From the sequence record NC_022968.1: a stretch of DNA of 64,000 nucleotides. The stretch is one strand, 5' to 3'. Positions within the stretch are counted from its first letter, which is position 1; each line of letters opens with the position of its first letter. Both the position numbers and the translations under genes were made by a program. The DNA comes from Escherichia phage 4MG. Below the pieces are notes generated by a model. The model was not told where the DNA came from and ran no database searches. It saw only the letters and a program-made list of their open reading frames with translations. Shown piece by piece: positions 9,371-52,577 of the stretch.

Positions 9371-9371
9371 T

Positions 9372-9857: not shown

Positions 9858-9864
9858 GTAACCC

Positions 9865-10290: not shown

Positions 10291-10309
10291 TCCGTAAGGA
10301 GGTCTTCTT

Positions 10310-10864
10310 TTGAAACTAACGCTTGAACAACTCAACAAGATTTTTCCAGTAGGTGCATCCGCTGGGCGTAACGCAAAGTTCATTGATGCACTGAACGACT
10401 TGTTTGAGAAGGGTGGTATTAATACTGTCAACCGTATCGCCGGATTCCTCTCCCAAATTGGTGTGGAGTCTGCCGAGTTCCGTTACGTCAAGGAGCTTGG
10501 GAAGGATTCGTACTTTGATAAGTATGATACTGGCTCTATCGCAAAGCGTCTTGGTAACACCCCAGAGAAGGATGGGGATGGGGCCAAGTACAAGGGGAGA
10601 GGCCTGATTCAGGTAACCGGACTTGCAAACTACAAAGCTTGCGGTAAGGCACTTGGTCTGGACCTCGTTAACCACCCAGAATTGCTTGAACAGCCTAAGT
10701 ATGCAGTTGCCAGCGCTGGTTGGTATTGGAACATGAGAAACATCAACGCCGCTTGCGATGCTGATGATATCGTTAAGATTACCAAGCTGGTAAACGGTGG
10801 TACAAACCACCTGGCCGAGCGCACAGCCTATTACAAAAAGGCAAAATCTGTTCTAACCTCGTAA
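10310..10864 (+). CDS. glycoside hydrolase family 19 lysozyme-like endolysin
   Basis: KYKGRGLIQVTGLANYKACG matches the GH19 catalytic signature (GRGxIQ[LV]T..NY); TTG start after TAAGGAGG. Confidence 0.7.
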   Translation: MKLTLEQLNKIFPVGASAGRNAKFIDALNDLFEKGGINTVNRIAGFLSQIGVESAEFRYVKELGKDSYFDKYDTGSIAKRLGNTPEKDGDGAKYKGRGLIQVTGLANYKACGKALGLDLVNHPELLEQPKYAVASAGWYWNMRNINAACDADDIVKITKLVNGGTNHLAERTAYYKKAKSVLTS

Positions 10865-10875
10865 GGAGAACCAAT

Positions 10876-11676: not shown

Positions 11677-11686
11677 CAGGAGGATT

Positions 11687-12319
11687 ATGGCATATTACAC
11701 TGGGGTAGGATCTCGCGAAACACCCCCAGAGGTTATCAGCGTCATGGAAGACGCTGCTTTCCGATTAGCAAGACTTGGATTCACACTGCGAAGTGGAAAA
11801 GCCGGGGGTGCTGATGAGGCATTTCAGGTAGGAATGCAAAAATATTACGAATCTCTTGACAATGGAAAACAAGAAGAGTATCGTACACGCTTGGCAGAGA
11901 TTTACATACCGTGGGACGGGTTTGCAGCAGATAATGACAAGCTCTGGGATTATTGGGATTATCCTTTGAGTTATGTCGATTACCTAATGCCGGAGCAAAA
12001 AGTGGTCAGGGACTCACTGGTCGAGGAAATTCATCCTAATTTCGAGGCACTTAAGAAGAAGCGTGGTGCTTTTGCACTTCACTCTCGCAACGTGCATCAG
12101 GTTTTGGGTGCAAATATTCTTGAGCCGCGCCCCTCTGCGTTTTGCCTGTACTATGCATCCGAGGATAAGCATGGTAATCCGAAAGGTGGTACGGCTACTG
12201 CGGTAAATCTTGCCAAAAAATATGGCGTGAGAACGCTTAATCTAAACACTCCGGAGCGCTTGGCCTTACTTGAGCAGTTCCTGACCAATCTTGAGAGGAA
12301 AAGAGGTGTCCAGGTTTAG
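11687..12319 (+). CDS. Rossmann-like nucleotide-binding protein (SLOG/DprA-like), function unknown
   Basis: N-terminal YTGVGSRETP ... SGKAGGADEAF pattern; trimmed to ATG after CAGGAGG. Confidence 0.4.
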   Translation: MAYYTGVGSRETPPEVISVMEDAAFRLARLGFTLRSGKAGGADEAFQVGMQKYYESLDNGKQEEYRTRLAEIYIPWDGFAADNDKLWDYWDYPLSYVDYLMPEQKVVRDSLVEEIHPNFEALKKKRGAFALHSRNVHQVLGANILEPRPSAFCLYYASEDKHGNPKGGTATAVNLAKKYGVRTLNLNTPERLALLEQFLTNLERKRGVQV

Positions 12320-33141: not shown

Positions 33142-34805
33142 CATTATACGCCACATCTCCTGAAGCGGGAGGATACAATCACCAGACCTGCGTGAAAGGT
33201 TGTACACCCTGTTAACATTCTGTCATGTCGATAAAACACCATTTCATAAACATATACCCCACAACATGTCGATGCTATAAACATGTCTGAAGTGACCCAG
33301 CAAATTAGCCGGGGACTAATCGCCTTGCGATATACCCACCCCTCCCCCGCCCGGAGGGAAACGTAAACAGGCCCCTCTCTTTGTGTTTTCTGGCACGAAA
33401 ATATCCTGAAGAGGCAGGGCCTCGAAGACAGGTGTTTCTGGGCGCAATCTCTATGTCTGATGTGTTAGACGGACAATCACAGCCCCTCCGGGTTGTCAAG
33501 GATCTTTACAAAATATCTGAGAGGTCTGACCACGAGACCCTATCGAGTTTTTGGCACGATGATTGCATGATGATTACGTGGCGCAACTAATGATTACAAG
33601 TGCAACTATTAGCAATGTGACAGTTTACACCTGTTACAGCACGATTTGCTCTTGACTTGCTTATATTTGTGTGAATGAGCCTATTTAACATAATACACGT
33701 TATGCGAACCACAGATCACCGGGAGACAGGCCATATAGTCACATATGTTATCATTGCATCAGTGAACCATACCACAAGGCAACCAATAGCCTGCTACATG
33801 TTACCACCACGACAGTTTCACGCTGTTATTATTCATTTTGTGGGGTGTTTTGTCGATGAGAATACAAATGATAATCATTCTGAATACGATTTCGATTTCA
33901 GTTTCGAAATGAAAACCATTCTCAAATGGAAAATATTTTGTAAATCTGCCATAAAAAGCTTGACACAGAGGGAAAAATGTGTTTAGCATTTAAGCCTATC
34001 TTGAGCATCCAACCGCAATGATAATCATTAACGTTAAGCCTTGCTACGCCTGGCTTTAATAGACTTTTCCTATCAATAAAAAGCTTGACAGTTTACACCT
34101 TTTCATGCTCAAGAAAACCGCTTTTCATCGGGCATCTAGCCCGGTTTACAACATGATTAATCATGATTTGTCAATCATTAAACATGATTAAACCGCTTTT
34201 GATCTTCATAACCTGGCGACACAATAACACGAGGGCGATCATGCGATAGCGTGATCGGTGTTATCGTGGCGAGGTTATAAAATACTTCAACTATGCAATA
34301 GTTGCATTATGAATTATTCATTGTTCTAGTCATCTTGTCTGTTAACGCTTAGGCGCTAACGAGCCACGATAACGCGAACGAAAACGATATTTATTATCGT
34401 TTGAGTTACCCTCGTGTTATTGTGTCGCTCGCTCCGCTCGCGCCACTCACCCCGATAACGCGAACGATATTTTTATTTGACAAAAGATGATTACTATGCT
34501 CAAAAAAGACAGTTCACACAAAGGGTTAGATGAGAAAAGTTATCATTTCAGGGCTTTTGCTTCGTATTCACTCAATTTGCATAAAAACACGGTGTTTATT
34601 CACTTGATAACCTGCGTTATCATTTTTGGGGTGTGAGTGAGTCAAAGGCGGGTAATGATACACGATTAAACGCAATATAACGCGTTTTGAGAGGGTTTAT
34701 CTGTTAGGCTTGCCGTTGTATGGCTTCAAAGAGATCTCTTTAAATTCACTTTTTTGCATAAAGACGGGTAAAGATTTAGTGTTTTGTTTGGGGTGTTGGT
34801 ATGAT

Positions 34806-34834
34806 ATGCAAAAAGCCGGGGATTATCCCGGCCT
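34806..34834 (-). terminator. rho-independent terminator (minus strand)
   Basis: Minus-strand hairpin GGCCGGGATAATCCCCGGC followed by TTTTTGCATAT, just after the stop of gene 34853-35062. Confidence 0.7.
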
Positions 34835-34852
34835 TACTTGGTGTGACTTTGA

Positions 34853-35062
34853 TCAGATAAACATTGCAGCATAATGATCGTAAAGGTCTTGCGCTTGTCT
34901 GGCAGGCCAGCGGCTTTCATCCACCGGGACACGTAGATCAATCGGGCGGCGATCTTTCAATCCGTTAACATGAAAAAATGTTTCACCTGTAAGCTGTACG
35001 ATCTCCAGTTTAACGAGGTTGTCAGAATCTTTTACGGTCTGCTGAATGAGAATAGTAGTCAT
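34853..35062 (-). CDS. hypothetical protein
   Basis: Trimmed ORF; minus-strand GTGGAG RBS. Confidence 0.45.
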   Translation of the reverse strand: MTTILIQQTVKDSDNLVKLEIVQLTGETFFHVNGLKDRRPIDLRVPVDESRWPARQAQDLYDHYAAMFI

Positions 35063-35068
35063 TTGCAA

Positions 35069-35434
35069 TTACTCCACAATTGTGATGGTTTGACCTGGTA
35101 ACAGGAAATTCCCGGTTTTATCGTCAAAAATTCCGGTTGCACTTGTTACGGTGACCGTTTCGCCTGATGTCACGATCATAACTTGGGATTCAGTTGGATA
35201 ATCAAAGGTGTAAAGGCGAGGTGTTAACGGCTTGCCGCTTTCTTTCGAATAGTTAACATCATAATCATAAACGGCTTGACATTTGATCGCTACCGTTTCG
35301 GCCTTGTAATAGTGGTTATCATAGCCATAGCCACGCATAAACGGCGCGGATATTTCCAGGACTTCACACAGCGAACCACGAAACAACATATCGCCTTTTT
35401 TCAGGTCTAAAAGGTTGATTTTCTTAAGATCCAT
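35069..35434 (-). CDS. hypothetical protein
   Basis: Leader hairpin plus AGAGGTAAACAAAATG. Confidence 0.5.
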   Translation of the reverse strand: MDLKKINLLDLKKGDMLFRGSLCEVLEISAPFMRGYGYDNHYYKAETVAIKCQAVYDYDVNYSKESGKPLTPRLYTFDYPTESQVMIVTSGETVTVTSATGIFDDKTGNFLLPGQTITIVE

Positions 35435-35457
35435 TTTGTTTACCTCTCAAAGTGTAA

Positions 35458-35474
35458 CGGGGCGACTAGCGCCC
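35458..35474. repeat. GC-rich leader hairpin (family member)
   Basis: GGGGCG-ACTAG-CGCCCC between two minus-strand genes, about 20 nt upstream of the start codon. Confidence 0.6.
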
Positions 35475-35484
35475 CCGATGATTA

Positions 35485-35862
35485 TTACTGATAAGCGGGA
35501 TCGTTGGTGATGTCGATCCAATGAGTTAAATCAATTTTGCCTTTTTCTTTCATTTTCTCGATCAGGCGGTCGGCTAATGTCTCAGAACGAACATAAACAT
35601 TCTCGCTAAAATCCTGGCCTGTTTCATCGTCGATCATTTCGCAATATTCGATTTTACCGATGAAAGCATGATTCAAGGCGTAAGTTTTACCAGTAAACCA
35701 GTTGTGTAAATGAATCTCGCATTTATAATCATCGCTACGGCCTTCAGTAGTCATAACGTCGATCAGATCACCTTTGAAAACTGAAAGATTCCACATGAGA
35801 TCTTTAGTTTTACCGCCAAAATCTTTAGTTTCTACGGTTGAAGCCAGGTTAATGATCGACAT
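35485..35862 (-). CDS. hypothetical protein
   Basis: First gene of a minus-strand unit; RBS AGAGGTAAATCA. Confidence 0.5.
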   Translation of the reverse strand: MSIINLASTVETKDFGGKTKDLMWNLSVFKGDLIDVMTTEGRSDDYKCEIHLHNWFTGKTYALNHAFIGKIEYCEMIDDETGQDFSENVYVRSETLADRLIEKMKEKGKIDLTHWIDITNDPAYQ

Positions 35863-35899
35863 TTGATTTACCTCTTAGTCTGTTTTGTTTGATTTCGTT

Positions 35900-35945
35900 T
35901 GTTTGCCCTACGAGATAAATATTACTATAGGGGGATCAGCACGTC
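35900..35945 (-). promoter_or_regulatory. sigma70-type promoter (minus strand), conserved family
   Basis: Minus-strand TTGACG - 17 nt - TAATAT followed by conserved CGTAGGGC. Confidence 0.5.
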
Positions 35946-36358
35946 AATAGCTCTTTACATAACTTTACACTATTCACTGTTTGCATCTTTATGCATCGCT
36001 ATGCAATTCATTTCATGGTGAAATTACTTTTTAGGCGTTTTTCCGTGTCAAGCTATTTTTATATAGCCTTTAAACGTCCTGTAACGCGTTTTAAGCGGTT
36101 TTGCGTCCAGGCTGTACCCTAGCCCGTTTTAACGGAGATCTCCCCATATTCACTATTTTGCATAGGATTTGAGGGTGTAGTGATAATCATTCTCATCGCC
36201 CAGCGATTAGCCCCCGGCTAACTATCTAAATGATAGTGATTCTCATTACCGGAATAACAGGCACCTCCGGTGGCTTTCCTCCGGTGTCCATCGTTGCCGC
36301 TTCCACAAAAGAATAACAAAAACCGGGACAGAAAACAAGCCCCGGAATTGTAAAGATT

Positions 36359-36676
36359 TTAGCGGATATTTATCCCGGCGGGTAGCCAGTAGCCAGAATA
36401 ATGATCATGAGGTGTGAACCCGTGGGACGGCTTTATATATGTAACTGATAACCATTCTCGATCATCCAGATAAAGCGCCTCATCTATTGCCACCACAAAA
36501 CACAATTCACCTTCACGATCTTTAACGGTTGCGATAGCGTGTTTTTCTATCGCCTTTTCAAGTGCAGCCAGGCCGCGCCGGAATTGTTCCGGGCGTGTGC
36601 GGTAACCTAAGTTATCCTCAGGGCAAAGTCTGTTTAAGGTAGCCCAGCTAACCGCAATCATTTTTTGAAGTGTCAT
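36359..36676 (-). CDS. hypothetical protein
   Basis: Trimmed to ATG with minus-strand AAGAGG RBS. Confidence 0.45.
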   Translation of the reverse strand: MTLQKMIAVSWATLNRLCPEDNLGYRTRPEQFRRGLAALEKAIEKHAIATVKDREGELCFVVAIDEALYLDDREWLSVTYIKPSHGFTPHDHYSGYWLPAGINIR

Positions 36677-36686
36677 TGTCTGCCTC

Positions 36687-37163
36687 TTATCTGTAACGGT
36701 GCATTGATTCACGATAGACCGATCCGCCGTCGAACTTCTCCGCACTTCTCAGGGCGTCCACTAGCTCGCACATTTTGCGGAGTACATACGAACAATGATC
36801 ATTAAAGTCAATGGCTTTTTTAATCATTTCCTCTTTACTCTCCCCATCAATAAAGACAAGTTGATCAAGGGCGTTATAGTGATCAAGCCAGGCGCGGATC
36901 GCGTCATGCTCCAGGGGGCGATCTGTCTGGCTAAAACTTGACAGGCCGAAAGATTCAAAAGTGTTTACATTGTCCATTAATTCATCATAAGCGGTTTCCC
37001 AGCTACTAGCCCAGAACTCAACCGCATCAGATTGAAAATCAGGATCATCAGGGTCAATAAAACAGATTGAAAAAAGTTGCAGGCCTTCACGCTTTGTTAA
37101 GGTATAGCGAGCACTATCAAGGGCGCGTGTTTTGGTGTCTTCTGGGGTGATTTCATATTTCAT
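36687..37163 (-). CDS. hypothetical protein (start uncertain)
   Basis: Track ORF trimmed to internal ATG. Confidence 0.4.
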   Translation of the reverse strand: MKYEITPEDTKTRALDSARYTLTKREGLQLFSICFIDPDDPDFQSDAVEFWASSWETAYDELMDNVNTFESFGLSSFSQTDRPLEHDAIRAWLDHYNALDQLVFIDGESKEEMIKKAIDFNDHCSYVLRKMCELVDALRSAEKFDGGSVYRESMHRYR

Positions 37164-37305
37164 TCTTTGATACCTATAAACGGAAAATGTGAGAGATCTG
37201 CGGGGCGTAAGTGTTGACTTTGAACCCATTCACCAGACATCAGAGCCAGGACACGGGAACCGCGCCAGCGGTAGCGATTCCCATTCAAAAGGTTAACGTA
37301 AATGA

Positions 37306-37533
37306 TCATGCGCCGTAAAGACCATCACTATTAAAATCATCCTCAAAAGAGGCCAAGTATTCGAAAAATTCAAACTCCATCGCGACAACATGTTTAACCA
37401 AATCAGCATTTTTGTATTCAGCCGGGGACAGGCGGATCGGCGCGTCACTATATAGATCCGTAAGTTCGATGTATTCCCCGACCTTTTGAGCGGTTACCGT
37501 GTTTTTCTTGTTGTCGAAAATTACTTGTTTCAT
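37306..37533 (-). CDS. hypothetical protein
   Basis: ORF with ATGA overlap to upstream gene. Confidence 0.45.
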   Translation of the reverse strand: MKQVIFDNKKNTVTAQKVGEYIELTDLYSDAPIRLSPAEYKNADLVKHVVAMEFEFFEYLASFEDDFNSDGLYGA

Positions 37534-37754
37534 GATATACGCTCAATAATAATGATTGCTTGCGGGATAGAATCAGGAGTAACGATCAGGGCTTTTGATT
37601 GACGAATTTTAAAGCCTAGTTTCGCTTTGCACACCGTGGCGGTCATTTTCCGCATTTCAGGATCTACGTTTGCACCTTCACAGAACCATACAGCCTTTTC
37701 ACCTGCGATAAGGTTGCGTAAAAATTCAGTTTGCCCGGTTTGATTCTTTAACAT
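37530..37754 (-). CDS. hypothetical protein
   Basis: Leader hairpin plus GAAAGGTAAACGAAATG. Confidence 0.5.
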   Translation of the reverse strand: MLKNQTGQTEFLRNLIAGEKAVWFCEGANVDPEMRKMTATVCKAKLGFKIRQSKALIVTPDSIPQAIIIIERIS

Positions 37755-37775
37755 TTCGTTTACCTTTCAAAGTAT

Positions 37776-37794
37776 GCCGGGGACGTTCCCCGGC
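37776..37794. repeat. GC-rich leader hairpin (family member)
   Basis: GCCGGGGA-CGT-TCCCCGGC, 8-bp stem and 3-nt loop. Confidence 0.65.
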
Positions 37795-37801
37795 TTGCTG
37801 A

Positions 37802-38062
37802 TTAGATTGATTTTTCGATATCGGCTAAAATCTCTTTTGCAAGAGTATAGTTTACATTCAGATCCCGCGCTATGTCTTCGGCTAACAGTTTACGACCTAC
37901 GTTACCGAAACTTAACATTCTTTTAACTTCTGGTAACCCTTTGCCCCAATAGTTATAGCAGGAATCACCGATATATTTTGAGTAAAACGCGTTATCGTTG
38001 CGAACTCCACCTAAAACAGCGACATTAACAGAGATAACGTGTTTAAAATTGTGCTTTTCCAT
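37802..38062 (-). CDS. hypothetical protein
   Basis: Leader hairpin plus AAAAGGTAAACAAAATG. Confidence 0.5.
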   Translation of the reverse strand: MEKHNFKHVISVNVAVLGGVRNDNAFYSKYIGDSCYNYWGKGLPEVKRMLSFGNVGRKLLAEDIARDLNVNYTLAKEILADIEKSI

Positions 38063-38082
38063 TTTGTTTACCTTTTCGGCTT

Positions 38083-38103
38083 GCCGGGGAGGTATTCCCC
38101 GGC
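38083..38103. repeat. GC-rich leader hairpin (family member)
   Basis: GCCGGGGA-GGTAT-TCCCCGGC. Confidence 0.65.
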
Positions 38104-38147
38104 CTCAAAAAGATATTAACCGATCCGCGCCTTGCTTGCAAGCGTTT

Positions 38148-38480
38148 TTATTCATCTTCCCCGTAATCATCGCCAATGTTGAAAATGTCCAGCATATCAC
38201 CAGCAGCGATCCACAGCAGGTACATTTCCAGGGTATGGCGATCCATATTATCGATCCCGTCTACCCCTTCACGCTCGATCCCGGTTTCAGCCAGATAATC
38301 CCGGATCATTTGATCGGTGTAGGCGCTAAACTGTAAACCGTCCCGGAAATAGGGCAGGGCTTCAACGGTGGAGGCTTCACAATCCCCAGAGTGGGCGATC
38401 TCTTCTACCTGGTCACGGTCACGGAAAATCAGACACAACCGACCACAGGAGGAAGACCAATAAACGTTTTTCTTTTTCAT
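38148..38480 (-). CDS. hypothetical acidic protein
   Basis: Trimmed start; acidic C-terminus DDYGEDE. Confidence 0.45.
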   Translation of the reverse strand: MKKKNVYWSSSCGRLCLIFRDRDQVEEIAHSGDCEASTVEALPYFRDGLQFSAYTDQMIRDYLAETGIEREGVDGIDNMDRHTLEMYLLWIAAGDMLDIFNIGDDYGEDE

Positions 38481-38482
38481 GA

Positions 38483-38716
38483 TTAAGCCCACACTTTAGC
38501 ATAAGAGAAGAGATCGGAAATATAGCCACGATACCCGCCGCGCTTGTGATTGCTTGCGTTATTCTTCCAGGCAACAACCACAGATCCCGAACGTTTTACA
38601 CCACAGAAGATCCCGCGATCCCCACCTTTTCCGGCTTCTACCCATTGCCCCGGCTGCAATTTTGCAACGTTGGTTTGAGCGTCCCAGATATCCACGGTTT
38701 TAGTGTATCGTGCCAT
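38483..38716 (-). CDS. hypothetical protein
   Basis: Leader hairpin plus GAAAGGTAAATATTATG. Confidence 0.5.
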   Translation of the reverse strand: MARYTKTVDIWDAQTNVAKLQPGQWVEAGKGGDRGIFCGVKRSGSVVVAWKNNASNHKRGGYRGYISDLFSYAKVWA

Positions 38717-38737
38717 AATATTTACCTTTCATTATGA

Positions 38738-38756
38738 CCGGGGACAATCCCCGGCC
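38738..38756. repeat. GC-rich leader hairpin (family member)
   Basis: CCGGGGA-CAA-TCCCCGG. Confidence 0.65.
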
Positions 38757-38768
38757 TGTTAGAATACT

Positions 38769-39110
38769 TTAGCCGATCTGGTTTTCAGAGTCAACCGGGA
38801 AAACATCATTTACAATCTCAACAACTACCGCGAAAACATCCAGAGCATCACGGATCGGCAGGCTATCCGCTTGCTTTACATAGCCTTTCACGCTTTCAAG
38901 CTGATAAGAGATGTAATGAGCTTTGCAGGGTTTTTGTGTGCCGTGATCAATGCTGTTTTCCGTGCGGATCATGATATCCAGGCGATCCCCGTTCACAGCG
39001 TCATTGATATGACAAAAACGCAATAACGTTTTATCATCGAAACGACGAAAATCACATTTTGCTTTGTCAGTAACGCCAGCCAGGAAGAAAAATTTATTTG
39101 CCAGTTCCAT
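38769..39110 (-). CDS. hypothetical protein
   Basis: ORF. Confidence 0.45.
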   Translation of the reverse strand: MELANKFFFLAGVTDKAKCDFRRFDDKTLLRFCHINDAVNGDRLDIMIRTENSIDHGTQKPCKAHYISYQLESVKGYVKQADSLPIRDALDVFAVVVEIVNDVFPVDSENQIG

Positions 39111-39126
39111 TTTTAAAACCTCGTTT

Positions 39127-39243
39127 TAGAATAAAGATAATAACAGCAGGAAGATCACGAAAGACCACACCAGACGACACATGATCCGCGCCTCAGTGTA
39201 AACCGGGTTTTCGGTAGTGTATTCTACTTTGTAACCTTTCATG
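39127..39243 (-). CDS. small membrane protein (38 aa)
   Basis: Below track cutoff; leader hairpin plus GGTGAGGTGAATCATG. Confidence 0.3.
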
Positions 39244-39261
39244 ATTCACCTCACCAGGTGA

Positions 39262-39280
39262 CCGGGAACCGCTCCCGGCC
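39262..39280. repeat. GC-rich leader hairpin (family member)
   Basis: CCGGGA-ACCGC-TCCCGG. Confidence 0.6.
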
Positions 39281-39321
39281 TTGTCTGATAATTATTGATC
39301 AACCGTTCCCCGTTGTCAAAT

Positions 39322-39618
39322 TTATTTTTTGGCCTCTTGTGTGGCGTACATTTCAACCAAACTTTGAGCGCTCAAATTATCCACAAAAAAGGATGTCACG
39401 GCAACCGCCGGATCACCTTCCACGGCTTCACCTTCCGGCATTGGTTCGACTTCCGGCGATGGTATGCAAGCCGGATTAATCCAGCGGCGATCCTCGGAAT
39501 AGCCACGCGCTACAATGTAGCAGGTTAGCGGATCGTCGTATGATTCAACAATAAAATCATCACACTGTTTAAGCGCAAGGGCGCTATAAAAACACATTCC
39601 GGCGAATACTTCAAACAT
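39322..39618 (-). CDS. hypothetical protein
   Basis: ORF. Confidence 0.45.
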   Translation of the reverse strand: MFEVFAGMCFYSALALKQCDDFIVESYDDPLTCYIVARGYSEDRRWINPACIPSPEVEPMPEGEAVEGDPAVAVTSFFVDNLSAQSLVEMYATQEAKK

Positions 39619-39627
39619 GATCTTTAC

Positions 39628-39846
39628 CTACTTTTTGAGGGTGAGGATAGGGCGTTTATCGCCTTCTTTAACTCCGGGATCTAGCTCATCACAGATCCCG
39701 ATCTGCTCGCCTTTGCCTAACGTGTATTCGTTTTCGTACACGTTGCAAGCCTGCTCGGTGGGGAATGTTTTTTTAACATCCCAGCTACATTCTAACTTCA
39801 TTGAAGTTAGCGAGATATGGCAGGCCATAACGATAAACCCGAACAT
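39628..39846 (-). CDS. hypothetical protein
   Basis: ORF. Confidence 0.45.
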   Translation of the reverse strand: MFGFIVMACHISLTSMKLECSWDVKKTFPTEQACNVYENEYTLGKGEQIGICDELDPGVKEGDKRPILTLKK

Positions 39847-40082
39847 TACGCCACCTCTTCAAAAGTCGATTCCCAGGCCCCGTGATAATCAACGCCGTTT
39901 TCGGTGTCCTCATCACAAGAGTGGATATTATCAAAAAGTTCGCCGGATGTATAGCCCTCATTCAACATTTCGAAAATTCTTTCTTGTGCTGATTCTTCTA
40001 AAAAATCCGCGTGGCGGTCTAATACTTCACCGTTATTATCTGACTTTTTCCACCAATAAGAGATTTTGATTTCGCGTTTCAT
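39846..40082 (-). CDS. hypothetical acidic protein
   Basis: Trimmed to ATG (MKREIKISYWW...). Confidence 0.45.
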   Translation of the reverse strand: MKREIKISYWWKKSDNNGEVLDRHADFLEESAQERIFEMLNEGYTSGELFDNIHSCDEDTENGVDYHGAWESTFEEVA

Positions 40083-40189
40083 TTTTCGGACTCCAGAATG
40101 ATATGGATAGCGACAACAGAGCAAGCCGCTACGATGAAAGATACCAGCGCCGCCACACACCAAAGGTTTGTATAATCTAACATTTTCAT
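40079..40189 (-). CDS. small membrane protein (36 aa)
   Basis: Below track cutoff; minus-strand AGAGAGG RBS; ATGA overlap. Confidence 0.3.
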   Translation of the reverse strand: MKMLDYTNLWCVAALVSFIVAACSVVAIHIILESEK

Positions 40190-40259
40190 TACCTCTCTTT
40201 AAGTGGTGGCATTATTGCCGCCTATGAATAAAGATACCATAAGCGGCGCAGATTGCAAG

Positions 40260-40550
40260 TTATTTTTTGATCTGGTTTGTGCGGTTATAGTCCTCATACC
40301 GTACACGGGACACGGTGACCGATTGAGGGAGGAGGCAACGCACACGATCCGCGCGGTTGTCATATTTCTGGATATGTGCCGGGGTATTGTTGCGGGTAAA
40401 CTTCACGCGTAAACGTAATTTTGTTGGATCACGGTCATCGATCCCGGTGACCACACCGAACCCAATTTGACCATAATTATGATAAACCATTTTGCCCAAG
40501 TATTTGTTTTCAAGAGCATTTTTAGTCAGAGCATTCATTACTTTACACAT
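40260..40550 (-). CDS. hypothetical protein
   Basis: First gene after promoter region; RBS AAAAGGTAAATATCATG. Confidence 0.5.
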   Translation of the reverse strand: MCKVMNALTKNALENKYLGKMVYHNYGQIGFGVVTGIDDRDPTKLRLRVKFTRNNTPAHIQKYDNRADRVRCLLPQSVTVSRVRYEDYNRTNQIKK

Positions 40551-40589
40551 GATATTTACCTTTTGGTTGTGTGGGCTTCACTATGTCGC

Positions 40590-40635
40590 CCTACGTGTTA
40601 AATATTAACAGATTCACGCCAGGACGCAAGAAAAT
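40590..40635 (-). promoter_or_regulatory. sigma70-type promoter (minus strand), conserved family
   Basis: Minus-strand TTGCGT - 16 nt - TAATAT followed by conserved CGTAGGGCGAC. Confidence 0.45.
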
Positions 40636-40839
40636 TATTAAATCTTTACAATATTCACTGTTTTGCATAAGTATTCAATGATATGCAAATAGTTTCACGT
40701 TGTTACTAAATTTAAGCCCTTTTGAGCGTGGCGCGGTTTCGTGATACCGCTTTAAAGCTCCTGTAAGCCTCTCTAAGCGCTTCAACGTCGAACCCTGGCA
40801 AGTGCATCACCTCGCGGAGAAGTCCCCAAATTCACTTTT

Positions 40840-40873
40840 TTGCATAGAAAAAAGGCCGGGGATCGTCCCGGCC
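40840..40873 (-). terminator. rho-independent terminator (minus strand)
   Basis: Minus-strand GGCCGGGACGATCCCCGGCC followed by TTTTTTCTATG, just after the stop of gene 40879-41082. Confidence 0.75.
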
Positions 40874-40878
40874 TCTTG

Positions 40879-41082
40879 TTAGTCAGTTTGTACGGCTTGC
40901 CACTGTAAAGCACGTTTGCGATCCGCCAACCGTTTATTGAGATTTGGATCATAACGGTCTGGCGTCCAGGTTTTGGCAACGCGTTCCGGCTTGTGTAATT
41001 TGTCGTTACGTTGGCGGCGCTCGTTTACTTCACCATAAGCCAGGCGATCACGCTTGCTTGTCATCTTCTCAATATTTCGCAT
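40879..41082 (-). CDS. hypothetical basic protein
   Basis: ORF ending at the terminator. Confidence 0.45.
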   Translation of the reverse strand: MRNIEKMTSKRDRLAYGEVNERRQRNDKLHKPERVAKTWTPDRYDPNLNKRLADRKRALQWQAVQTD

Positions 41083-41096
41083 TCTAAACCCTCGTT

Positions 41097-41444
41097 TTAT
41101 TTTCGTTTGTTGTATACATGTTCAATGATCCGGCCTTGCTGTTCTGCTAGCTCATTAGCTCGCCATTCTATGATCTCGGTTATCTGCTCTTTTGTGCCTT
41201 CTTTGTGATACGTGATAAACCCGCCACGCTTTTTCACTTCACACAATAGCCCGTTACCCTCAAGATCATTTAATGCCCCAGATCGCCGGGTGTGGTAGTG
41301 CTTACCGTGGAACCTATATTCAATATAATGATACACTTTCCCGATCCTGTATTCGTAGTAAATCCAGAGCACTCCCCGCCATAGCCTGGCGGGGATCTTC
41401 CAGTAAATAGCAGCAGCAGCTACCAAAAACAGGATTTTAAACAC
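41097..41444 (-). CDS. hypothetical protein with N-terminal membrane anchor
   Basis: Hydrophobic N-terminus. Confidence 0.45.
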   Translation of the reverse strand: MFKILFLVAAAAIYWKIPARLWRGVLWIYYEYRIGKVYHYIEYRFHGKHYHTRRSGALNDLEGNGLLCEVKKRGGFITYHKEGTKEQITEIIEWRANELAEQQGRIIEHVYNKRK

Positions 41445-41446
41445 TG

Positions 41447-42013
41447 TTAATAATCCTCTAACATTTCGCGCAGGGCTTCCAGTTCCTCACCTGTAAAGAT
41501 CTTGCGGAGTTCCTCGCCTGTTTTCTGGCAAGCAAGATAAATCTCTAAACCTTTGCGGCTATCCTCATCATAACCCATGTTAGCGCAAAAATCAGCATGA
41601 GTTTCTGATCCACAATCAGCATCAGCTAGCAGGCAGTAAAGCACGTTTGCGGCGCAAGGTGTCGCAACATATACACGGTAACCGAAAGACATTGCTTTAT
41701 TATTGTTGCGTTTGTAATCGTCGCGTGTCCAGTTTTTCTGATCCACTTGTGCAACTTTCGCGCCAACTTTCGCAAGCTCTCGCGCATCAGTCGGAGTTAC
41801 GCCACCGTTACGGCCTACACGGTGCCCGGTTCCCGTTTTAAATTCAGTGCGGTAAACGTTAGCGCCCTTTTCGAAACTCACAAAAAACAGATCCGCTTCC
41901 CACTTAGGATCATTGTTAACGCCGCCATATTGAGCATTAAAAGTAATGCCCTTTTCTTTCAGGAAGTTAGAAACGGCTACGTCTTGATCGTTGAAAGTGA
42001 TTTTGTTATTCAT
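41447..42013 (-). CDS. hypothetical protein
   Basis: 188 aa ORF. Confidence 0.5.
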   Translation of the reverse strand: MNNKITFNDQDVAVSNFLKEKGITFNAQYGGVNNDPKWEADLFFVSFEKGANVYRTEFKTGTGHRVGRNGGVTPTDARELAKVGAKVAQVDQKNWTRDDYKRNNNKAMSFGYRVYVATPCAANVLYCLLADADCGSETHADFCANMGYDEDSRKGLEIYLACQKTGEELRKIFTGEELEALREMLEDY

Positions 42014-42108
42014 GATATTTTACCTTTTGTTTGGTTTGGCATTATTGCCGGGTTATTTCTCTTACTTGGTGGAGCTATCTTAAAGCCCCACCTATTAAGA
42101 GTCAACAA

Positions 42109-42294
42109 CTATTTAATAATTTCTTTGCCGAAAGAATCAAAAGAGGCGATCACTTTTAGATTATCATCTAACAGCTTGCCGGGGATCTTTAGATTGTTGA
42201 TCCGTTGGCTAGCCTCTTGTTTAACGTCCTCAATAGTGCGGCTTGCCGAATTGAAGATCGTTAAAACTTGCCCGTTATCCATGCTTACAACCAT
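42109..42294 (-). CDS. hypothetical protein
   Basis: ORF. Confidence 0.4.
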   Translation of the reverse strand: MVVSMDNGQVLTIFNSASRTIEDVKQEASQRINNLKIPGKLLDDNLKVIASFDSFGKEIIK

Positions 42295-42295
42295 T

Positions 42296-42691
42296 TCACA
42301 CCGCCTTTAAATAATTGTTAGTTACTCGGTAAACGTGGCGATAAGCTTGTTTTTTGGTGTGCGGCGCATAGGTCATAGACTGATAAGCCAGATCATAACC
42401 GATTTTTTCAAGCCAGTAAAGCGCGGCGCTTTGCCCTTCATTGTGTGATTGTTCCCGGCGGCGTGGCGATTCCAGGACGGTGACGCCGAACCCGGTATAA
42501 CCATTTTGCACGGACAGAAGATCCCCACGGTGAAGCGTGGCGCGGTATTTGTTGATCGTGTTACCGTTGACATCTCGCCCAAAATCAAAGGAATCAATGA
42601 CCACGAAAAAATCCCCGGTTGTCTGGCGTGAAACTTCTTTCAGGCGGTTAACAGCGTCATACAGATTGATTGAGGTTTTAAACTTTGCCAT
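42296..42691 (-). CDS. hypothetical protein
   Basis: Leader hairpin plus TAAAGGTAAAGAAAATG. Confidence 0.5.
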   Translation of the reverse strand: MAKFKTSINLYDAVNRLKEVSRQTTGDFFVVIDSFDFGRDVNGNTINKYRATLHRGDLLSVQNGYTGFGVTVLESPRRREQSHNEGQSAALYWLEKIGYDLAYQSMTYAPHTKKQAYRHVYRVTNNYLKAV

Positions 42692-42711
42692 TTTCTTTAC
42701 CTTTAGTCAGT

Positions 42712-42729
42712 GCCGGGAACCGTCCCGGC
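42712..42729. repeat. GC-rich leader hairpin (family member)
   Basis: GCCGGGA-ACCG-TCCCGGC. Confidence 0.6.
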
Positions 42730-42770
42730 TTGAGTAGAATTATCGGCTTTTCTTGCCGGGGTGTCAATAC

Positions 42771-43064
42771 TTACAGAAGATTTTTTAATTCTTCGTAAGT
42801 GGCGGCGCTAATCTCGGTTACAGATTTAACACGTACAACATGAGCGCCACAATCAGACCAATAACCGCTTTCGTTCACTTCGTCGATATCATCGAAAGAA
42901 TAATGGGCGGCGGCGCAACGGTTTTCCGCTTCGTTGGTTGCATCTTCCAGGGAGTGATCAACAATAAGATCCACGGTCGGGAATTCTTTCCCATCATACA
43001 TGCAATAGATACGGGCAAGGAAAAATTTTGCTGGGGCGGTAGTGGTTTTGTTTGTAGTAGTCAT
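42771..43064 (-). CDS. hypothetical acidic protein
   Basis: Leader hairpin plus AAAAGGTAATACAAAATG. Confidence 0.5.
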   Translation of the reverse strand: MTTTNKTTTAPAKFFLARIYCMYDGKEFPTVDLIVDHSLEDATNEAENRCAAAHYSFDDIDEVNESGYWSDCGAHVVRVKSVTEISAATYEELKNLL

Positions 43065-43085
43065 TTTGTATTACCTTTTTTGTGT

Positions 43086-43104
43086 GGCGGGAACTATTCC
43101 CGCC
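43086..43104. repeat. GC-rich leader hairpin (family member)
   Basis: GGCGGGAA-TAG-TTCCCGCC. Confidence 0.6.
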
Positions 43105-43144
43105 TTGATTTGTAATATAATCGATCTAGCTTAGGATTGCAAAT

Positions 43145-43342
43145 TTATTTTGCAACATAATCCGGGTTAGGTGTACGGCGTTCAATGATCCGGGCTTCGT
43201 ACCCGTTGCGGCGATAATCTTTCTTTGTTGCTCTCGCATCAGACCAATTTGCCTCGGCGCAGGAATCCTCCCAGCCGTTGCAGGTTCTTTCCTGTACGAT
43301 GATTTCATAAAGCCATTTATTAACACGCGGAGCCTTTGCCAT
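43145..43342 (-). CDS. hypothetical protein
   Basis: RBS GAGGTAAACGAAATG; preceded by a hairpin-containing promoter. Confidence 0.5.
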   Translation of the reverse strand: MAKAPRVNKWLYEIIVQERTCNGWEDSCAEANWSDARATKKDYRRNGYEARIIERRTPNPDYVAK

Positions 43343-43373
43343 TTCGTTTACCTCGTTTTGTTTCGGTTTTGGT

Positions 43374-43403
43374 ATTATGCGCCGGATTCCCGGCGCTTGT
43401 CAA
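43374..43403 (-). promoter_or_regulatory. sigma70-type promoter whose spacer is a GC-rich palindrome
   Basis: Minus-strand TTGACA - AGCGCCGGGAATCCGGCG - CATAAT; spacer is a family hairpin. Confidence 0.5.
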
Positions 43404-43405
43404 AT

Positions 43406-43735
43406 TTATTTTCTTGCCATATGAGCAGCAAGCCGGGCGGCAACCTGGGATCGCTTATGCATTACCGGGATCGGCTTGCCGTTTGCGTCGTGTACATAGG
43501 ATACACGGGGCGCTTTGCGGTTGCGATAGCCTGCTTTTACTTCCAGCGTAACAACCGGGGCGCGTTCCATTTCAGCACGTTGATCGGCGGTGTCCTGGAT
43601 TGCTTCAACCATAACGCCGGGGATCACTTGCCAGCGTTTACCAGCAGGGGCGGCGGTGCCGTTGTCGATCACTTTGCCACCGTTAGATTTTGCAGCAGTA
43701 CGGGCAAGGGCGCGAGAATTGAAATAGTTATTCAT
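43406..43735 (-). CDS. hypothetical basic protein
   Basis: Track ORF trimmed to ATG (MNNYFNSRAL...). Confidence 0.45.
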   Translation of the reverse strand: MNNYFNSRALARTAAKSNGGKVIDNGTAAPAGKRWQVIPGVMVEAIQDTADQRAEMERAPVVTLEVKAGYRNRKAPRVSYVHDANGKPIPVMHKRSQVAARLAAHMARK

Positions 43736-43825
43736 GGTGTAACCTCGTTTAGTGTGGTTGTTTGTTTCGCTTGTCAATGTCCGGGAAGTATAACCCCAGA
43801 CATTAACCAGCGTCAACAATTATTT

Positions 43826-44122
43826 TTATTCTTCGGTGTCGTCATCAGGATCACCGTAAGCACTAGGGATCGGGGTGTTACAGTTATCACAAGGCAGATC
43901 CGCGCCTTCCCAGTAGACATCCACGCCAGCAGGCATCCAGGCCGGATCGCATTCGTCCCTTAATTCTTCCAGCAGGCGGGGGAAGTTTTCACGGGTACAC
44001 TTTGAACAAAGGCAACCGCCATCACGCATGATCAAAATTTTCGGATACCCGCCGAACTCATACGGGTGACGGATATAATTTTTTACAGTGCCGATCAATT
44101 GCTTGTTAGCGGAAATTTTCAT
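43826..44122 (-). CDS. Cys-rich acidic protein
   Basis: CLCSKC ... CDNC cysteines; leader hairpin plus GAAAGGTAAAACAGAATG. Confidence 0.5.
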   Translation of the reverse strand: MKISANKQLIGTVKNYIRHPYEFGGYPKILIMRDGGCLCSKCTRENFPRLLEELRDECDPAWMPAGVDVYWEGADLPCDNCNTPIPSAYGDPDDDTEE

Positions 44123-44143
44123 TCTGTTTTACCTTTCGTTAGT

Positions 44144-44162
44144 GCCGGGGCGCGTCCCCGGC
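44144..44162. repeat. GC-rich leader hairpin (family member)
   Basis: GCCGGGG-CGCGT-CCCCGGC. Confidence 0.65.
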
Positions 44163-44195
44163 TTGTTAGTAAGATAGCCGATCCGAACCTGGGGA

Positions 44196-44726
44196 TCAAG
44201 CTACTTTTAAAATATTTTTCAGGCCGTCGATATTAGACAGCAGATCCGCGCCTGCTTTCTTTGCAGCTTCCAGGGCTTCGGAGTCGATCCCGTTTTCCTT
44301 GTAAACATCTTTTGCAGCGTCGATCAATGTTTCATCGTCATCATAGGAATAATCGAAACTACATCCCATCGTTTCGCCGTCCAGGAGTGTGATCCCGTTT
44401 GCGGTAGCAGTTACCACGAAACCATAATCACTAGCGTTTAAATCGCGCTCTAATGCCTCTTGTGCGGCCTTGTAAGCGTTAGCCGATGGATTCTCATCAC
44501 CCTGGCTTATCAGGTGTGCGATCCTTTCTTTCAAGCTGTATTGAAGCGGGATCGCGTACTTGTAAGAGTTTCGGCAGGCTTGCGGATTTTTAACCGTTAC
44601 CCCACCTTCGTGATCGTCGGTCATTTCCCATTGATCCGCGAACCCGGTAAACTCATTAAAGTTAACAACGTTAACAGTAAAATCAATGCCGTTTGAAGAG
44701 TAGTTGAAAGTTTCGATAGTGTCCAT
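44196..44726 (-). CDS. highly acidic protein, first gene of a minus-strand unit
   Basis: 176 aa rich in Asp/Glu; RBS AAAAGGTAAAGCAAATG; directly downstream of a promoter. Confidence 0.5.
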   Translation of the reverse strand: MDTIETFNYSSNGIDFTVNVVNFNEFTGFADQWEMTDDHEGGVTVKNPQACRNSYKYAIPLQYSLKERIAHLISQGDENPSANAYKAAQEALERDLNASDYGFVVTATANGITLLDGETMGCSFDYSYDDDETLIDAAKDVYKENGIDSEALEAAKKAGADLLSNIDGLKNILKVA

Positions 44727-44764
44727 TTGCTTTACCTTTTGTGTGTGGGCGGCGGTGTGTCGCC

Positions 44765-44800
44765 CTGATGAGATGAATAGTAAGCGCTTTACTAATTGCC
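44765..44800 (-). promoter_or_regulatory. sigma70-type promoter (minus strand), conserved family
   Basis: Minus-strand TTGACG - 17 nt - TACTAT followed by CAGGGCGAC. Confidence 0.5.
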
Positions 44801-44850
44801 GTCAATACCCCTGGATGAAAATATTTTAAAAATCTTTTTGCCCGGTGTGG

Positions 44851-51381: not shown

Positions 51382-51645
51382 TCACTCTTCTACAGGATGC
51401 AAGAACTTTTGTGGTAAAAAGTGATCAAGCCCTTCTATTCTGAAACACCAGGCCAACTGAGCACCAGGAGCACCGGGGAAATGTGGGATAGCAAACAAGA
51501 CAATCCCATCAACTTTTCCAATTACGAGTCGCCCCATAGAGGTTGTTGATACCTTTTGACCGAACTTGATATCCGGAATAAAGCCTGCATCCAACATTTT
51601 CTTTTCAGGAGCCGACGCGGGTCGGCCCAGCATTTCTTCGTACAT
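51382..51645 (-). CDS. hypothetical protein
   Basis: TAATG overlap with upstream gene. Confidence 0.45.
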   Translation of the reverse strand: MYEEMLGRPASAPEKKMLDAGFIPDIKFGQKVSTTSMGRLVIGKVDGIVLFAIPHFPGAPGAQLAWCFRIEGLDHFLPQKFLHPVEE

Positions 51646-52577
51646 TACACCACCTTGTTGAGCATCGCAGCAATCTTAGGCAGGCCCATCTCTGTCTGAA
51701 TGATCAGTTGGGTCAGCGCCTTTTCCATTTTCTTCGACACAATGATGAAGTTGTCTTTAGCAAAACCAACTTTAAGGTCCATAATCAGGATCGCCTTTGG
51801 TTCACCAGACAGCTTCTCTCCGGTCAGAGAGCAGGTATTGCGAATATACTTCGCTTTGAACTGTGCATAGGTCACAGAAACGTTCATACCAGCGTCGGAG
51901 AATGTCTTGCAGTAGTTGGCGTAGGCCAGCGCTACAGCAACATCATCAGGCAGTTTTTGCTTCTCTTCCGCTGGTGCTGTAGTTTCTTCTGCAACCGGAG
52001 GCTGTTTATGGAAGTGCTGTTCAGCAAGTTCCATTGCGGAAGACGCGGTGCGCTCTTTAGGTTCCGGGTGACGTGGAAAATCTTCTGCAACAACAGGTTT
52101 TTCTACAACTTCTGAAGTATCTACTGGCATTTCTTTCTCCTCTTTTGGAATATATTTGGTTTTCAGTTTTTCCATGTGCTCTTTTGACATGTTGAGCATC
52201 ATTGCTTGTACGATTTCACGGTCAAGTGGCTCAATTATAGTGATTGCCGTCTTCTTGTCAACCAAACAATCTTTCAGTTCGTTAGCACGTTGAAGAACAA
52301 CACAGACGTTACCACGTACATAACCCTTCTTATCGTTGATACGCTCAACGGTTGGGTACAGCGGGTCTTTTTCACCATGCACAGAGCGCATACTGAAGTC
52401 CATATTGGTATAGTCACATTTACCCATACCAAGAAGCTTTTCACCCATCATGAACCAGTCATCAAGGGTCAGACTGAATTCCAGGCCACGTTTCTTTGTG
52501 CGTTCAACCTTTTTACGGTAACGTTCCTCTAGACTTTTGATCTCACTGGCGGTAAATTTCTTTTTCACATCAAACAT
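51645..52577 (-). CDS. hypothetical protein with degenerate HNH_3-like segment
   Basis: ERINDKKGYVRGNVCVVLQRANELK resembles the C-terminal half of HNH_3; minus-strand AAGGAG RBS. Confidence 0.45.
   Translation of the reverse strand: MFDVKKKFTASEIKSLEERYRKKVERTKKRGLEFSLTLDDWFMMGEKLLGMGKCDYTNMDFSMRSVHGEKDPLYPTVERINDKKGYVRGNVCVVLQRANELKDCLVDKKTAITIIEPLDREIVQAMMLNMSKEHMEKLKTKYIPKEEKEMPVDTSEVVEKPVVAEDFPRHPEPKERTASSAMELAEQHFHKQPPVAEETTAPAEEKQKLPDDVAVALAYANYCKTFSDAGMNVSVTYAQFKAKYIRNTCSLTGEKLSGEPKAILIMDLKVGFAKDNFIIVSKKMEKALTQLIIQTEMGLPKIAAMLNKVV

Follow-up and report, generated by a model that had tools for sequence, protein, structure and literature searches.

What are the GC-rich hairpins that lie in the intergenic gaps of a long run of small genes in Escherichia phage 4MG, and what might they do there? 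The window analyzed in this study is a stretch of 64,000 nucleotides (nt) of this phage (sequence record NC_022968.1), and the genes in question are found between positions 34853 and 44726 of the window. In a preliminary description of this DNA, the hairpins were thought to precede nearly every gene and to act as RNA processing sites, attenuators or binding sites for a regulator. Our results showed that the hairpin observation is real and highly non-random, and that its interpretation needs to be recast, as the hairpins are parts of promoter-hairpin-leader cassettes. The region is probably the hyperplastic early-gene block of an rV5-like (Seunavirus) phage, made of cassettes of the promoter-early stem-loop (PeSL) type that were described from the T4-like phages RB49/phi1, PST/T4, and nt-1/KVP40 (Arbiol et al. 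2010, PMC2839356; Comeau et al. 2014, PMC4122927).

In BLAST comparisons, 95% of a 6 kb query from the region aligned with Cronobacter phage GAP31 at 92% identity; identity was ~91% with Enterobacter phage EC152 and Escherichia phage LNA4 and ~85% with Salmonella phages PVP-SE1 and SSE121. Together with the window, these phages belong to Seunavirus, subfamily Vequintavirinae (rV5-like myophages). The block as a whole is as follows:

34853–44726, minus strand: array of 28 small genes (34–188 amino acid residues) in ~13 short transcription units, identified from open reading frames (ORFs) and leaders and orthologous to GAP31_045-072

The 28 minus-strand ORFs, all with leaders resembling Shine-Dalgarno (SD) sequences, agree with the earlier count of about 28 genes. 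In GAP31, genes 045-072 form the distal part of a leftward unit headed by an "anti-sigma factor" gene. PHROG families were matched by 24 of the 28 proteins, nearly all of them labeled "unknown function," and comparison with Pfam and PHROG likewise gave "unknown function" for almost all proteins of the block, so the "host-takeover gene set" of the preliminary description is only a putative one. Contrary to the earlier statement, not every gene is led by a hairpin: 14 of the 27 gene junctions were tightly coupled (≤15 nt) and hairpin-free, while the remaining 13 gaps spanned 47–496 nt and each contained at least one hairpin. All nine hairpins listed earlier were present, at 35459–75, 37776–94, 38083–103, 38736–56, 39260–80, 42712–29, 43086–104, 43379–96, and 44144–62. 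They do not represent one family in nearly every gap, however, as hairpins of the GCCGGGGA type occurred in 8 of the 13 gaps and different ones in the others. Moreover, their distance to the start codon, formerly given as 12–25 nt, was 20–24 nt for eight copies and 36 nt for the one at 43379.

What surrounds a hairpin? Each of the ~13 units was opened by a stereotyped module of ~80 nt. In this module, an A/T-rich stretch with the stop codon of the previous gene (e.g., aaaTAAatTTGACA ... AAAGGTAAAnnnnATG) preceded a sigma70-type -35/-10 promoter, which was followed by the GC-rich stem-loop, an A/C-rich unstructured leader, an SD sequence of (A/G)AGGT and, at a distance of 12–13 nt from the latter, ATG. 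The promoters, which were overlooked in the preliminary description, were directly upstream of the hairpins or overlapped them, with 9–11 of 12 matches to TTGACA-17-TATAAT. With other spacers included, in 13 gaps they matched TTGACA-16/18-TATAAT at 8–11 of 12 positions, and they were conserved in eight relatives; one of them, in the gene 16 cassette, is annotated in the PVP-SE1 record. The conserved leader reported earlier was found in most copies as (A/G)AGGTAAA-N3-5-ATG. In the following list of cassettes and related copies, the distance after the -10 hexamer is that to the hairpin:

44724–44805, minus strand: gene 1 cassette with TTGACG-17-TACTAT, 11 nt, a weak hairpin GGGCG..CGCCC (44747–44765), leader and ATG at 44726; covariance model hit at E = 1.5e-5
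44120–44199, minus strand: gene 2 cassette of class A with TTGATC-17-TATCTT, 8 nt, hairpin 44144–44162, SD AAAGGT and ATG at 44122
43733–43816, minus strand: gene 3 cassette of class C with TTGACG-18-TATACT, the -10 in the loop of hairpin 43773–43807
43340–43403, minus strand: gene 4 cassette of class B with hairpin 43379–43396 inside the spacer of TTGACA-18-CATAAT
43062–43142, minus strand: gene 5 cassette of class A with TTGCAA-17-TATATT, 9 nt, hairpin 43086–43104, SD and ATG at 43064
42689–42767, minus strand: gene 6 cassette of class A with TTGACA-17-GATAAT, 9 nt, hairpin 42712–42729, SD and ATG at 42691
42011–42105, minus strand: gene 8 cassette of class C with TTGACT-17-TAAGAT, the -10 in the loop of hairpin 42068–42092, and a long leader
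40548–40629, minus strand: gene 11 promoter TTGCGT-16-TAATAT, 10 nt, a weak GGGC..GCCC hairpin, leader and ATG at 40550
40181–40258, minus strand: gene 12 cassette with TTGCAA-16-TATCTT, 8 nt, an imperfect hairpin GGCGGCAataaTGCCACC (40205–40222), SD and ATG at 40183
39240–39319, minus strand: gene 16 cassette of class A with TTGACA-17-AATAAT, 10 nt, hairpin 39260–39280 (with a G.U pair), SD GAGGT and ATG at 39242
38714–38794, minus strand: gene 18 cassette of class A with TTGACT-17-TAAAGT (overlapping the end of gene 17), 9 nt, hairpin 38736–38756, SD and ATG at 38716
38060–38141, minus strand: gene 20 cassette of class A with TTGCAA-17-TAATAT, 9 nt, hairpin 38083–38103, SD and ATG at 38062
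37752–37797, minus strand: intercistronic copy before gene 21, hairpin 37776–37794 and leader without a credible promoter
35860–35947, minus strand: gene 26 promoter TTGACG-17-TAATAT with a long A/C-rich leader and no hairpin
35432–35484, minus strand: hairpin 35459–35475 (GGGGCG..CGCCCC) and leader before gene 27, with at most a weak promoter TCACCA-18-AATAAT

The cassettes fell into three classes by the position of the hairpin. In class A, the main class, the stem-loop began 8–10 nt past the -10 hexamer and ended 20–22 nt before ATG, was separated from the SD by 7–9 nt and was immediately preceded by a conserved CA(A). The -10-to-hairpin spacings of the six class A copies (genes 2, 5, 6, 16, 18, and 20) were 8, 9, 9, 10, 9, and 9 nt, respectively, and the spacing was likewise 8–10 nt in the eight relatives. 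Weaker class A-like copies preceded genes 1, 11, and 12. The hairpin of class B (one copy) was within the promoter spacer, and that of class C (two copies) held the -10 hexamer in its loop. Two additional copies, those before genes 21 and 27, consisted of hairpin and leader without a credible promoter. The placement of the hairpins was fixed relative to the downstream -10 and ATG, while their distance from the upstream stop codon varied from 8 to 45 nt. As the hairpins are parts of promoter cassettes and the six strong copies begin 8–10 nt past the -10, where they would make up the 5′-most ~20 nt of the mRNA, the roles proposed for them earlier were recast.

Are the hairpins of this block more frequent than expected, and are they specific to it? 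Strong minus-strand hairpins, with a folding free energy (dG) of ≤ -12 kcal/mol, numbered 14 in the 10 kb region and 1.06 ± 1.0 (maximum 5) in 100 dinucleotide shuffles, a 13-fold enrichment. Thirteen of the 14 were intergenic, and the rest of the window contained 1.9 strong hairpins per 10 kb per strand. A covariance model that combines hairpin and leader was built from 29 non-identical sequences of the window and its relatives. At E < 1e-4 it matched the 64 kb window nine times, always on the minus strand (35432–44767) and shortly before a start codon. When the complete GAP31 genome (148 kb) was scanned, the model matched only the orthologous region at 21.5–31.5 kb. Because the matches were confined to the block in both cases, the motif is specific to the early block; equal frequency inside coding sequence, which the preliminary description had named as grounds for abandoning its proposal, was not observed in the scan of the window and the GAP31 genome. 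An Rfam scan of the whole window found no family at gathering score.

The stems were also conserved as structures. A MAFFT alignment of the cassettes misaligned stems of unequal length, so base pairs were counted on an alignment of 48 distinct cassettes that was based on the covariance model; this alignment is biased in favor of the model and contains orthologues as well as paralogues. Within it 92% of the cells paired, four of the eight stem pairs were changed on both sides, and the covariation score was 0.309, as compared with 0.155 ± 0.013 for shuffles, none of 500 reaching the observed value, and ≤ 0.09 for slid partners; these numbers are supportive and do not represent a formal test. Compensation between orthologues is exemplified by GCCGGGA/TCCCGGC vs. 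GCCAGGG/CCCTGGC, GGCCGGGA/TCCCGGTC vs. GGCGGGGA/TCCCCGTC, GCGCCGG/CCGGCGC vs. GCGCCCC/GGGGCGC, and AATGTCTGG/CCGGACATT vs. AATGTGTGG/CCACACATT, the last pair of arms being that of the gene 3 cassette in PVP-SE1. In NINP13076, the two arms were swapped at the same position (GCCGGGG..CCCCGGC vs. GCCCCGG..CCGGGGC). The loops varied in length (3–5 nt) and sequence. Finally, the predicted 5′ untranslated regions contained a single 5′ hairpin of -13 to -16 kcal/mol, and SD and AUG were unpaired in six of eight.

Do the cassettes also bear on how the genes of this block are gained and lost? BLAST alignments of the region with eight relatives were chained, and the edges of non-homologous segments were collected as breaks. 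The intervals of cassettes and terminators make up 13% of the sequence and contained 17 of 50 distinct break clusters (p = 1.6e-4); most of the other clusters were at the start or stop codons of coupled genes. For instance, gene 20 was replaced by an unrelated gene in GAP31, PVP-SE1, EC152, and LNA4. In this swap the identity ran through promoter, hairpin, leader and ATG, ended at 38055 and restarted at 37794, the first base of the next hairpin. The cassette of the gene-6 orthologue in PVP-SE1 was chimeric, with promoter and hairpin of the gene-5 type and a leader end of the gene-6 type. In FENT2, the class C cassette of gene 3 preceded the gene-11 orthologue, and variants of the gene 4 cassette with compensatory stems preceded different genes in PVP-SE1, KE23, FENT2, and Erwinia phage Hena1. 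Moreover, an identical 19 nt hairpin, including its loop, was found at two non-orthologous sites within each of KE23, EspYZU15, and FENT2, while orthologous hairpin positions differed between genomes. Identity of hairpin and loop within a genome, with differences at orthologous positions, indicates exchange between cassettes. Thus, the cassettes coincide with replacement end points and recombine with one another. As conserved patches beside unrelated ORFs, they would provide crossover points at which small genes could be swapped together with their own expression signals.

Such behavior might also be expected if the hairpins had no function in RNA and were DNA palindromes, that is, recombination hot spots (cruciforms) or small mobile elements spread among promoter regions. 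The crossovers at or beside the hairpins and the homogenization of hairpin and loop within a genome in several relatives are consistent with this explanation, as are an endonuclease VII homologue encoded in the phage group (GAP31_151) and the mini-circle junctions of RB49, which were mapped within the loop (PMC2839356). A purely DNA-level element, however, does not require fixed spacing to the -10 and to SD/ATG. In addition, the one-sided changes in the stems were, on the sense strand, mostly G.U (26) rather than A.C (9), or ~8–9 vs. 4–5 independent families, a modest bias among non-independent sequences that is only suggestive and mildly favors pairing in the sense RNA. The G.U pair of GGCC..GGTC was retained in seven genomes. 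A role confined to DNA is therefore considered very improbable.

If the hairpins do function in RNA, what might that function be? On balance, the arrangement of the sequences favors a transcribed 5′-proximal stem-loop that stabilizes or insulates and doubles as a recombination patch. Host RNA polymerase would initiate class A transcripts at the conserved CA(A) that precedes the hairpin, and the mRNA would begin with 2–4 unpaired nt followed by the hairpin of -13 to -16 kcal/mol. Such a hairpin may hinder 5′-end-dependent attack by RppH and RNase E and may prevent upstream sequence from pairing with the ribosome site. When transcription reads through, hairpins of any class might separate cistrons as barriers or attenuators. 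Both RppH and RNase E require two or more unpaired 5′ nt, with a preference for three or more, and RppH is blocked by a 5′-terminal stem-loop (PMC8833179). The known counterparts are the 5′-terminal stabilizing stem-loops of the E. coli ompA and papA mRNAs (Emory, Bouvet and Belasco 1992, as cited in PMC3997798). Similar to these, the class A cassettes have a stable hairpin a few nt from the predicted 5′ end, and behind it are an unstructured leader and the ribosome site. Different from them, the window hairpins form a repeated family on many genes of one phage, and their start sites are placed from sequence. A hairpin beginning 8–10 nt after the -10 would leave 2–4 unpaired nt if transcription started at position 7–8, as compared with ~0–2 nt from the 5′ end for hairpins of the ompA/papA type.

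The PeSL stem-loops were interpreted in another way, as terminators or attenuators of transcription arriving from the upstream cassette (PMC2839356; PMC4122927), and by that account each gene or gene pair would be insulated and served by its own promoter only. The hairpins are intergenic, those of classes B and C can act only on upstream transcripts, and members of the same family followed by T runs do form true terminators at two unit ends, as the preliminary description had noticed; a third unit ends with a different hairpin and a T run:

40850–40877, minus strand: intrinsic terminator of the genes 8–10 unit, GGCCGGG..CCCCGGCC then TTTTTT
36323–36345, minus strand: terminator of the genes 21–25 unit, CCGGGGC..GTCCCGG then TTTTTG
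34812–34835, minus strand: intrinsic terminator ending the array, AAGGCCGGG..CCCCGGCTTT then a T run

These three copies fit the Rho-independent type fully, and the cassette hairpins share with it a GC-rich stem of 7–9 base pairs (bp) and a loop of 3–6 nt. In E. coli, intrinsic termination normally needs a U tract. None of the cassette hairpins, including the nine listed earlier, has one behind it; they were followed by A/C-rich tails such as ACTAACGAAA, ACACAAAAAA, and ACTGACTAAA, so the earlier statement that most are not canonical terminators was confirmed and the cassette copies were rejected as terminators of this kind. Class A hairpins are, moreover, downstream of their own start, where efficient termination would abort the mRNA of the cassette ~20 nt before the ribosome site, and they are positioned relative to the downstream -10 and ATG and not to the upstream stop codon. 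For both reasons the stabilizing or insulating role is favored for class A, and termination or attenuation as the function of the hairpins is regarded as unlikely. An attenuator or barrier role is nevertheless a real alternative, and it may coexist with the 5′ stabilizing one.

The roles suggested in the preliminary description, processing signals or regulator sites, examples of which would be RNase III, RNase E or nut-like antitermination sites, fared differently from one another. The hairpins are conserved and predicted to be transcribed, the A-rich single-stranded leader behind each could hold RNase E sites, and the promoterless copies before genes 21 and 27 would need processing to become 5′-terminal; attenuation, or RNase E processing next to a hairpin, may also play a part. 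RNase III needs roughly two helical turns, about 20 bp or more of double-stranded RNA. The stems of 6–9 bp are far below this length, and RNase III sites were rejected. The loops are variable and the stems change by compensation and arm swaps, contrary to sequence-specific recognition such as that of boxB by N, so nut/boxB-like sites were rejected and a protein that binds the loop specifically is unlikely. The cassette alignments showed no boxA-like partner motif, and the Rfam result above also provides no support. The window hairpins resemble lambda nut boxB hairpins and T7 RNase III sites in being non-terminator hairpins in early transcripts, but they differ in lacking a conserved loop or boxA and in having stems far too short for RNase III. 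As a function of the hairpins in general, processing or regulator binding is judged improbable. N4-type hairpin promoters for a virion RNA polymerase were also considered and dropped, given the clear sigma70 -35/-10 hexamers and the report that the relatives have no RNA polymerase gene (PMC7344957). The two promoterless copies do fit another known type. REP-type and other intercistronic stem-loops, e.g., that of malE-malF, block 3′ exonucleases and, similar to these copies, are GC hairpins without U tract between read-through cistrons. In contrast, most of the window copies are tied to a promoter and a downstream ribosome-binding site and not to the end of the upstream gene, from whose stop codon they are separated by 8–45 nt.

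Several points weigh against a 5′-proximal stabilizing or insulating stem-loop that doubles as a recombination patch. The class A start sites are predicted from the position of the -10 and the conserved CA(A), and our literature search found no transcription start, 3′-end or half-life data for this phage group, nor start-site data for Felix O1-like phages. A start 7 nt past the -10 leaves 2–4 nt unpaired, which may suffice for RppH and RNase E, so the protection could be partial. Because class B and C hairpins are outside the transcript of their own promoter, 5′ protection is not a function common to all hairpins; those of classes B and C would have to act on RNA that reads through them, or else as DNA. 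The stem-loop of RB49 PeSL211/210, which has no U tract in the sequence that we read, was reported to lower lacZ expression as much as rrnB T1 (PMC2839356), a result that also speaks for the attenuator. Common descent of the cassettes might account in part for their constant spacing. Furthermore, the G.U excess is small, two NINP13076 copies have stem mismatches, and many indel end points are at plain gene boundaries without a cassette.

Could the phage itself make 5′ protection useful? A 310 amino acid protein encoded at 51645–52577 on the minus strand, at the head of the leftward unit, matched the PHROG families "decoy of host sigma70" (6e-19) and "Srd anti-sigma factor" (1e-11); its best match was a family labeled HNH endonuclease, and no Pfam hit was found for it. 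The gene is the window orthologue of the GAP31 "anti-sigma factor" gene. In T4, Srd stimulates RNase E on host mRNA (PMC4980113). By analogy, a link between the Srd-like protein, RNase E and the hairpins may be envisaged, as speculation.

Other features were observed beside the cassettes. In the GAP31 record, near-consensus promoters (TTGACA-16/18-TATAAT, TAGAAT or TATCAT) with the -10 in the loop of a GC hairpin were found at 70010–70038, 71957–71976, and 81288–81305. Because these are outside the early block, the class C design is used genome-wide at strong promoters. GATC was 2–2.4 times denser in the cassette block (34800–44800) than in the rest of the window, with 114 sites (11.4 per kb), as compared with 4.7–5.6 per kb elsewhere and expectations of 38 (zero-order) and 78 (local second-order Markov) for the block. 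The same GATC peak was found in GAP31 (record 20–32 kb). Coding GATC sites were almost only in the phases GAT-Cnn (50) and nnG-ATC (49), and 6 of the 10 intergenic ones were in promoter spacers just before the -10 (..GATCGGy-TAnnnT); the spacer hairpins of RB49 PeSLs contain GATC too. Gene 9 contained, ~50 nt into its coding sequence (41373–41395, minus strand), a strong hairpin of 9 bp, TCCCCGCCaggctaTGGCGGGGA (-18.5 kcal/mol), which was kept in relatives through G.U and compensatory changes (TCCCCGCT..GGCGGGGA in GAP31 and CCCCGGC..GCCGGGG in KE23).

A 16 nt motif, ATGCAAAAnAGTGAAT, had four exact copies, with 0.36 expected by chance, at 34744–34759, 36148–36163, 40653–40668, and 40830–40845, all on the minus strand, plus a variant near 35985. 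All copies were in the long non-coding gaps after the three terminators. The first copy of each pair was followed by a palindrome (GGAGATCTCC or AAGAGATCTCTT) and the second by ATTGTAAAG and, ~25 nt on, by a sigma70-like promoter with the leader "cgtagggc." By its sequence, the repeat looks like an inter-operon control unit, either an operator or a phage-specific promoter. The ~800 nt downstream of the last terminator (~34000–34810) contained no annotated gene in GAP31, yet were 89.6% conserved with it; the rV5 paper likewise mentions a "non-coding" box. Among the genes, gene 26 (35485–35862, minus strand) matched the Pfam family "Phage GP30.8" from the T4 early region (2e-29). The product of gene 2 (43826–44122, minus strand; 98 amino acid residues) belongs to a PHROG labeled "DNA ligase," with which the EC152 annotation agrees; the label is implausible at this length. 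Homologues of the gene-1 protein were found in both the Hena1 and the Felix O1 groups.

How widely do such cassettes occur? BLAST of a single cassette found only orthologous copies, in Seunavirus, and the breadth beyond this genus was checked by structure-aware scans of two further loci, in Hena1 and Felix O1. Hena1 (Henunavirus) contained classes A, B, and C with the same hairpin families (scan of 5900–12300), including two copies of the gene 1-type hairpin GGGCGACAC..CGCCC. Felix O1 (Ounavirinae, 37% GC) contained four near-identical cassettes, each with TTGACA-17-TAAATT, 10–11 nt, GGGGAGGgaatgaCCTTCCC (GGGGAGG..CCTTCCC), a leader, GGAG and ATG:

7209–7330, Felix O1: first cassette
8074–8195, Felix O1: second cassette
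8639–8760, Felix O1: third cassette
9237–9360, Felix O1: fourth cassette

The Felix O1 genome paper does not mention these four promoter-hairpin-leader cassettes, and promoter-linked hairpins are absent from the promoters and terminators listed in the genome papers of rV5, Certrevirus CB7, and Felix O1. It is conceivable, though we hold it only tentatively, that promoter-5′-hairpin-leader cassettes are a common "plug-and-play" currency of early genes, shared among virulent enterobacterial myophages of at least three unrelated groups (T4-like, rV5-like, and Felix O1-like), and that in the transcribed class the hairpin works like a cap, shielding the early mRNAs of the phage from the RNase E/RppH decay that its own Srd-like protein turns on host mRNAs.

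The PeSL architecture and breakpoint behavior in Vequintavirinae, together with the analogous design in Felix O1, suggest a general rule for how large virulent phages gain and express small host-interaction genes. For annotators, the cassettes provide a simple signature of early transcription units in therapeutically used phages. With the transcribed hairpins, it can be tested whether the architecture of phage mRNAs is connected with the way in which phages manipulate RNA decay in the host, and the cassettes are compact expression parts with a strong promoter, a 5′ hairpin and a ribosome-binding site in ~80 nt.

How close, finally, are the window cassettes to PeSLs? A PeSL comprises a strong sigma70-like promoter with an upstream A/T-rich region, a stem-loop, for which five positions were described (among them downstream of the -10), and SD and ATG at the 3′ end; PeSLs precede ORFans in hyperplastic regions and are at indel end points, and their recombination yields mini-circles (PMC2839356; PMC4122927). 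They were proposed to shuffle accessory genes in T4-like phages, the authors noting no evidence elsewhere, and the PeSL papers found in our literature search concern T4-like phages only. Different from PeSLs, the window cassettes are from Vequintavirinae and not Straboviridae, their hairpin family is GCCGGGGA/GGCGGGAA rather than GGGGATC/GGGAGTA, and their SD type is AAAGGTAAA rather than GGAGAATCAAA. The transcribed class (8–10 nt after the -10) is dominant in the window and minor in RB49/phi1. Terminator activity and mini-circles were reported from RB49, whereas the window cassettes are known from sequence alone. Similar to PeSLs, the window cassettes have a near-consensus sigma70 promoter with an A/T-rich stretch that holds the upstream stop codon, and their stable G/C stem-loops occupy the spacer, enclose the -10 or follow it, corresponding to the three positional classes. 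They are closed by SD and ATG, are clustered before small ORFs of unknown function in a hyperplastic region, coincide with indel and replacement end points between close relatives and include chimeric forms. When RB49 ORFs 193-229 were read directly, their cassettes were those of classes B and C, also without U tracts; examples are TTGACA-GGGGATCnnnGATCCCC-TATAAT and GGGAGTAgTAAGATACTCCC with TAAGAT in the loop. The cassettes of RB49 and of the window share the leader CGAAAC, the spacer GGATCGGT and tgTTGAC, and the gene 8 cassette has the same TAAGAT-in-loop design as RB49 PeSLs. Thus, judged by their sequences, the window cassettes are of the PeSL kind, in a phage lineage where these have not previously been described.

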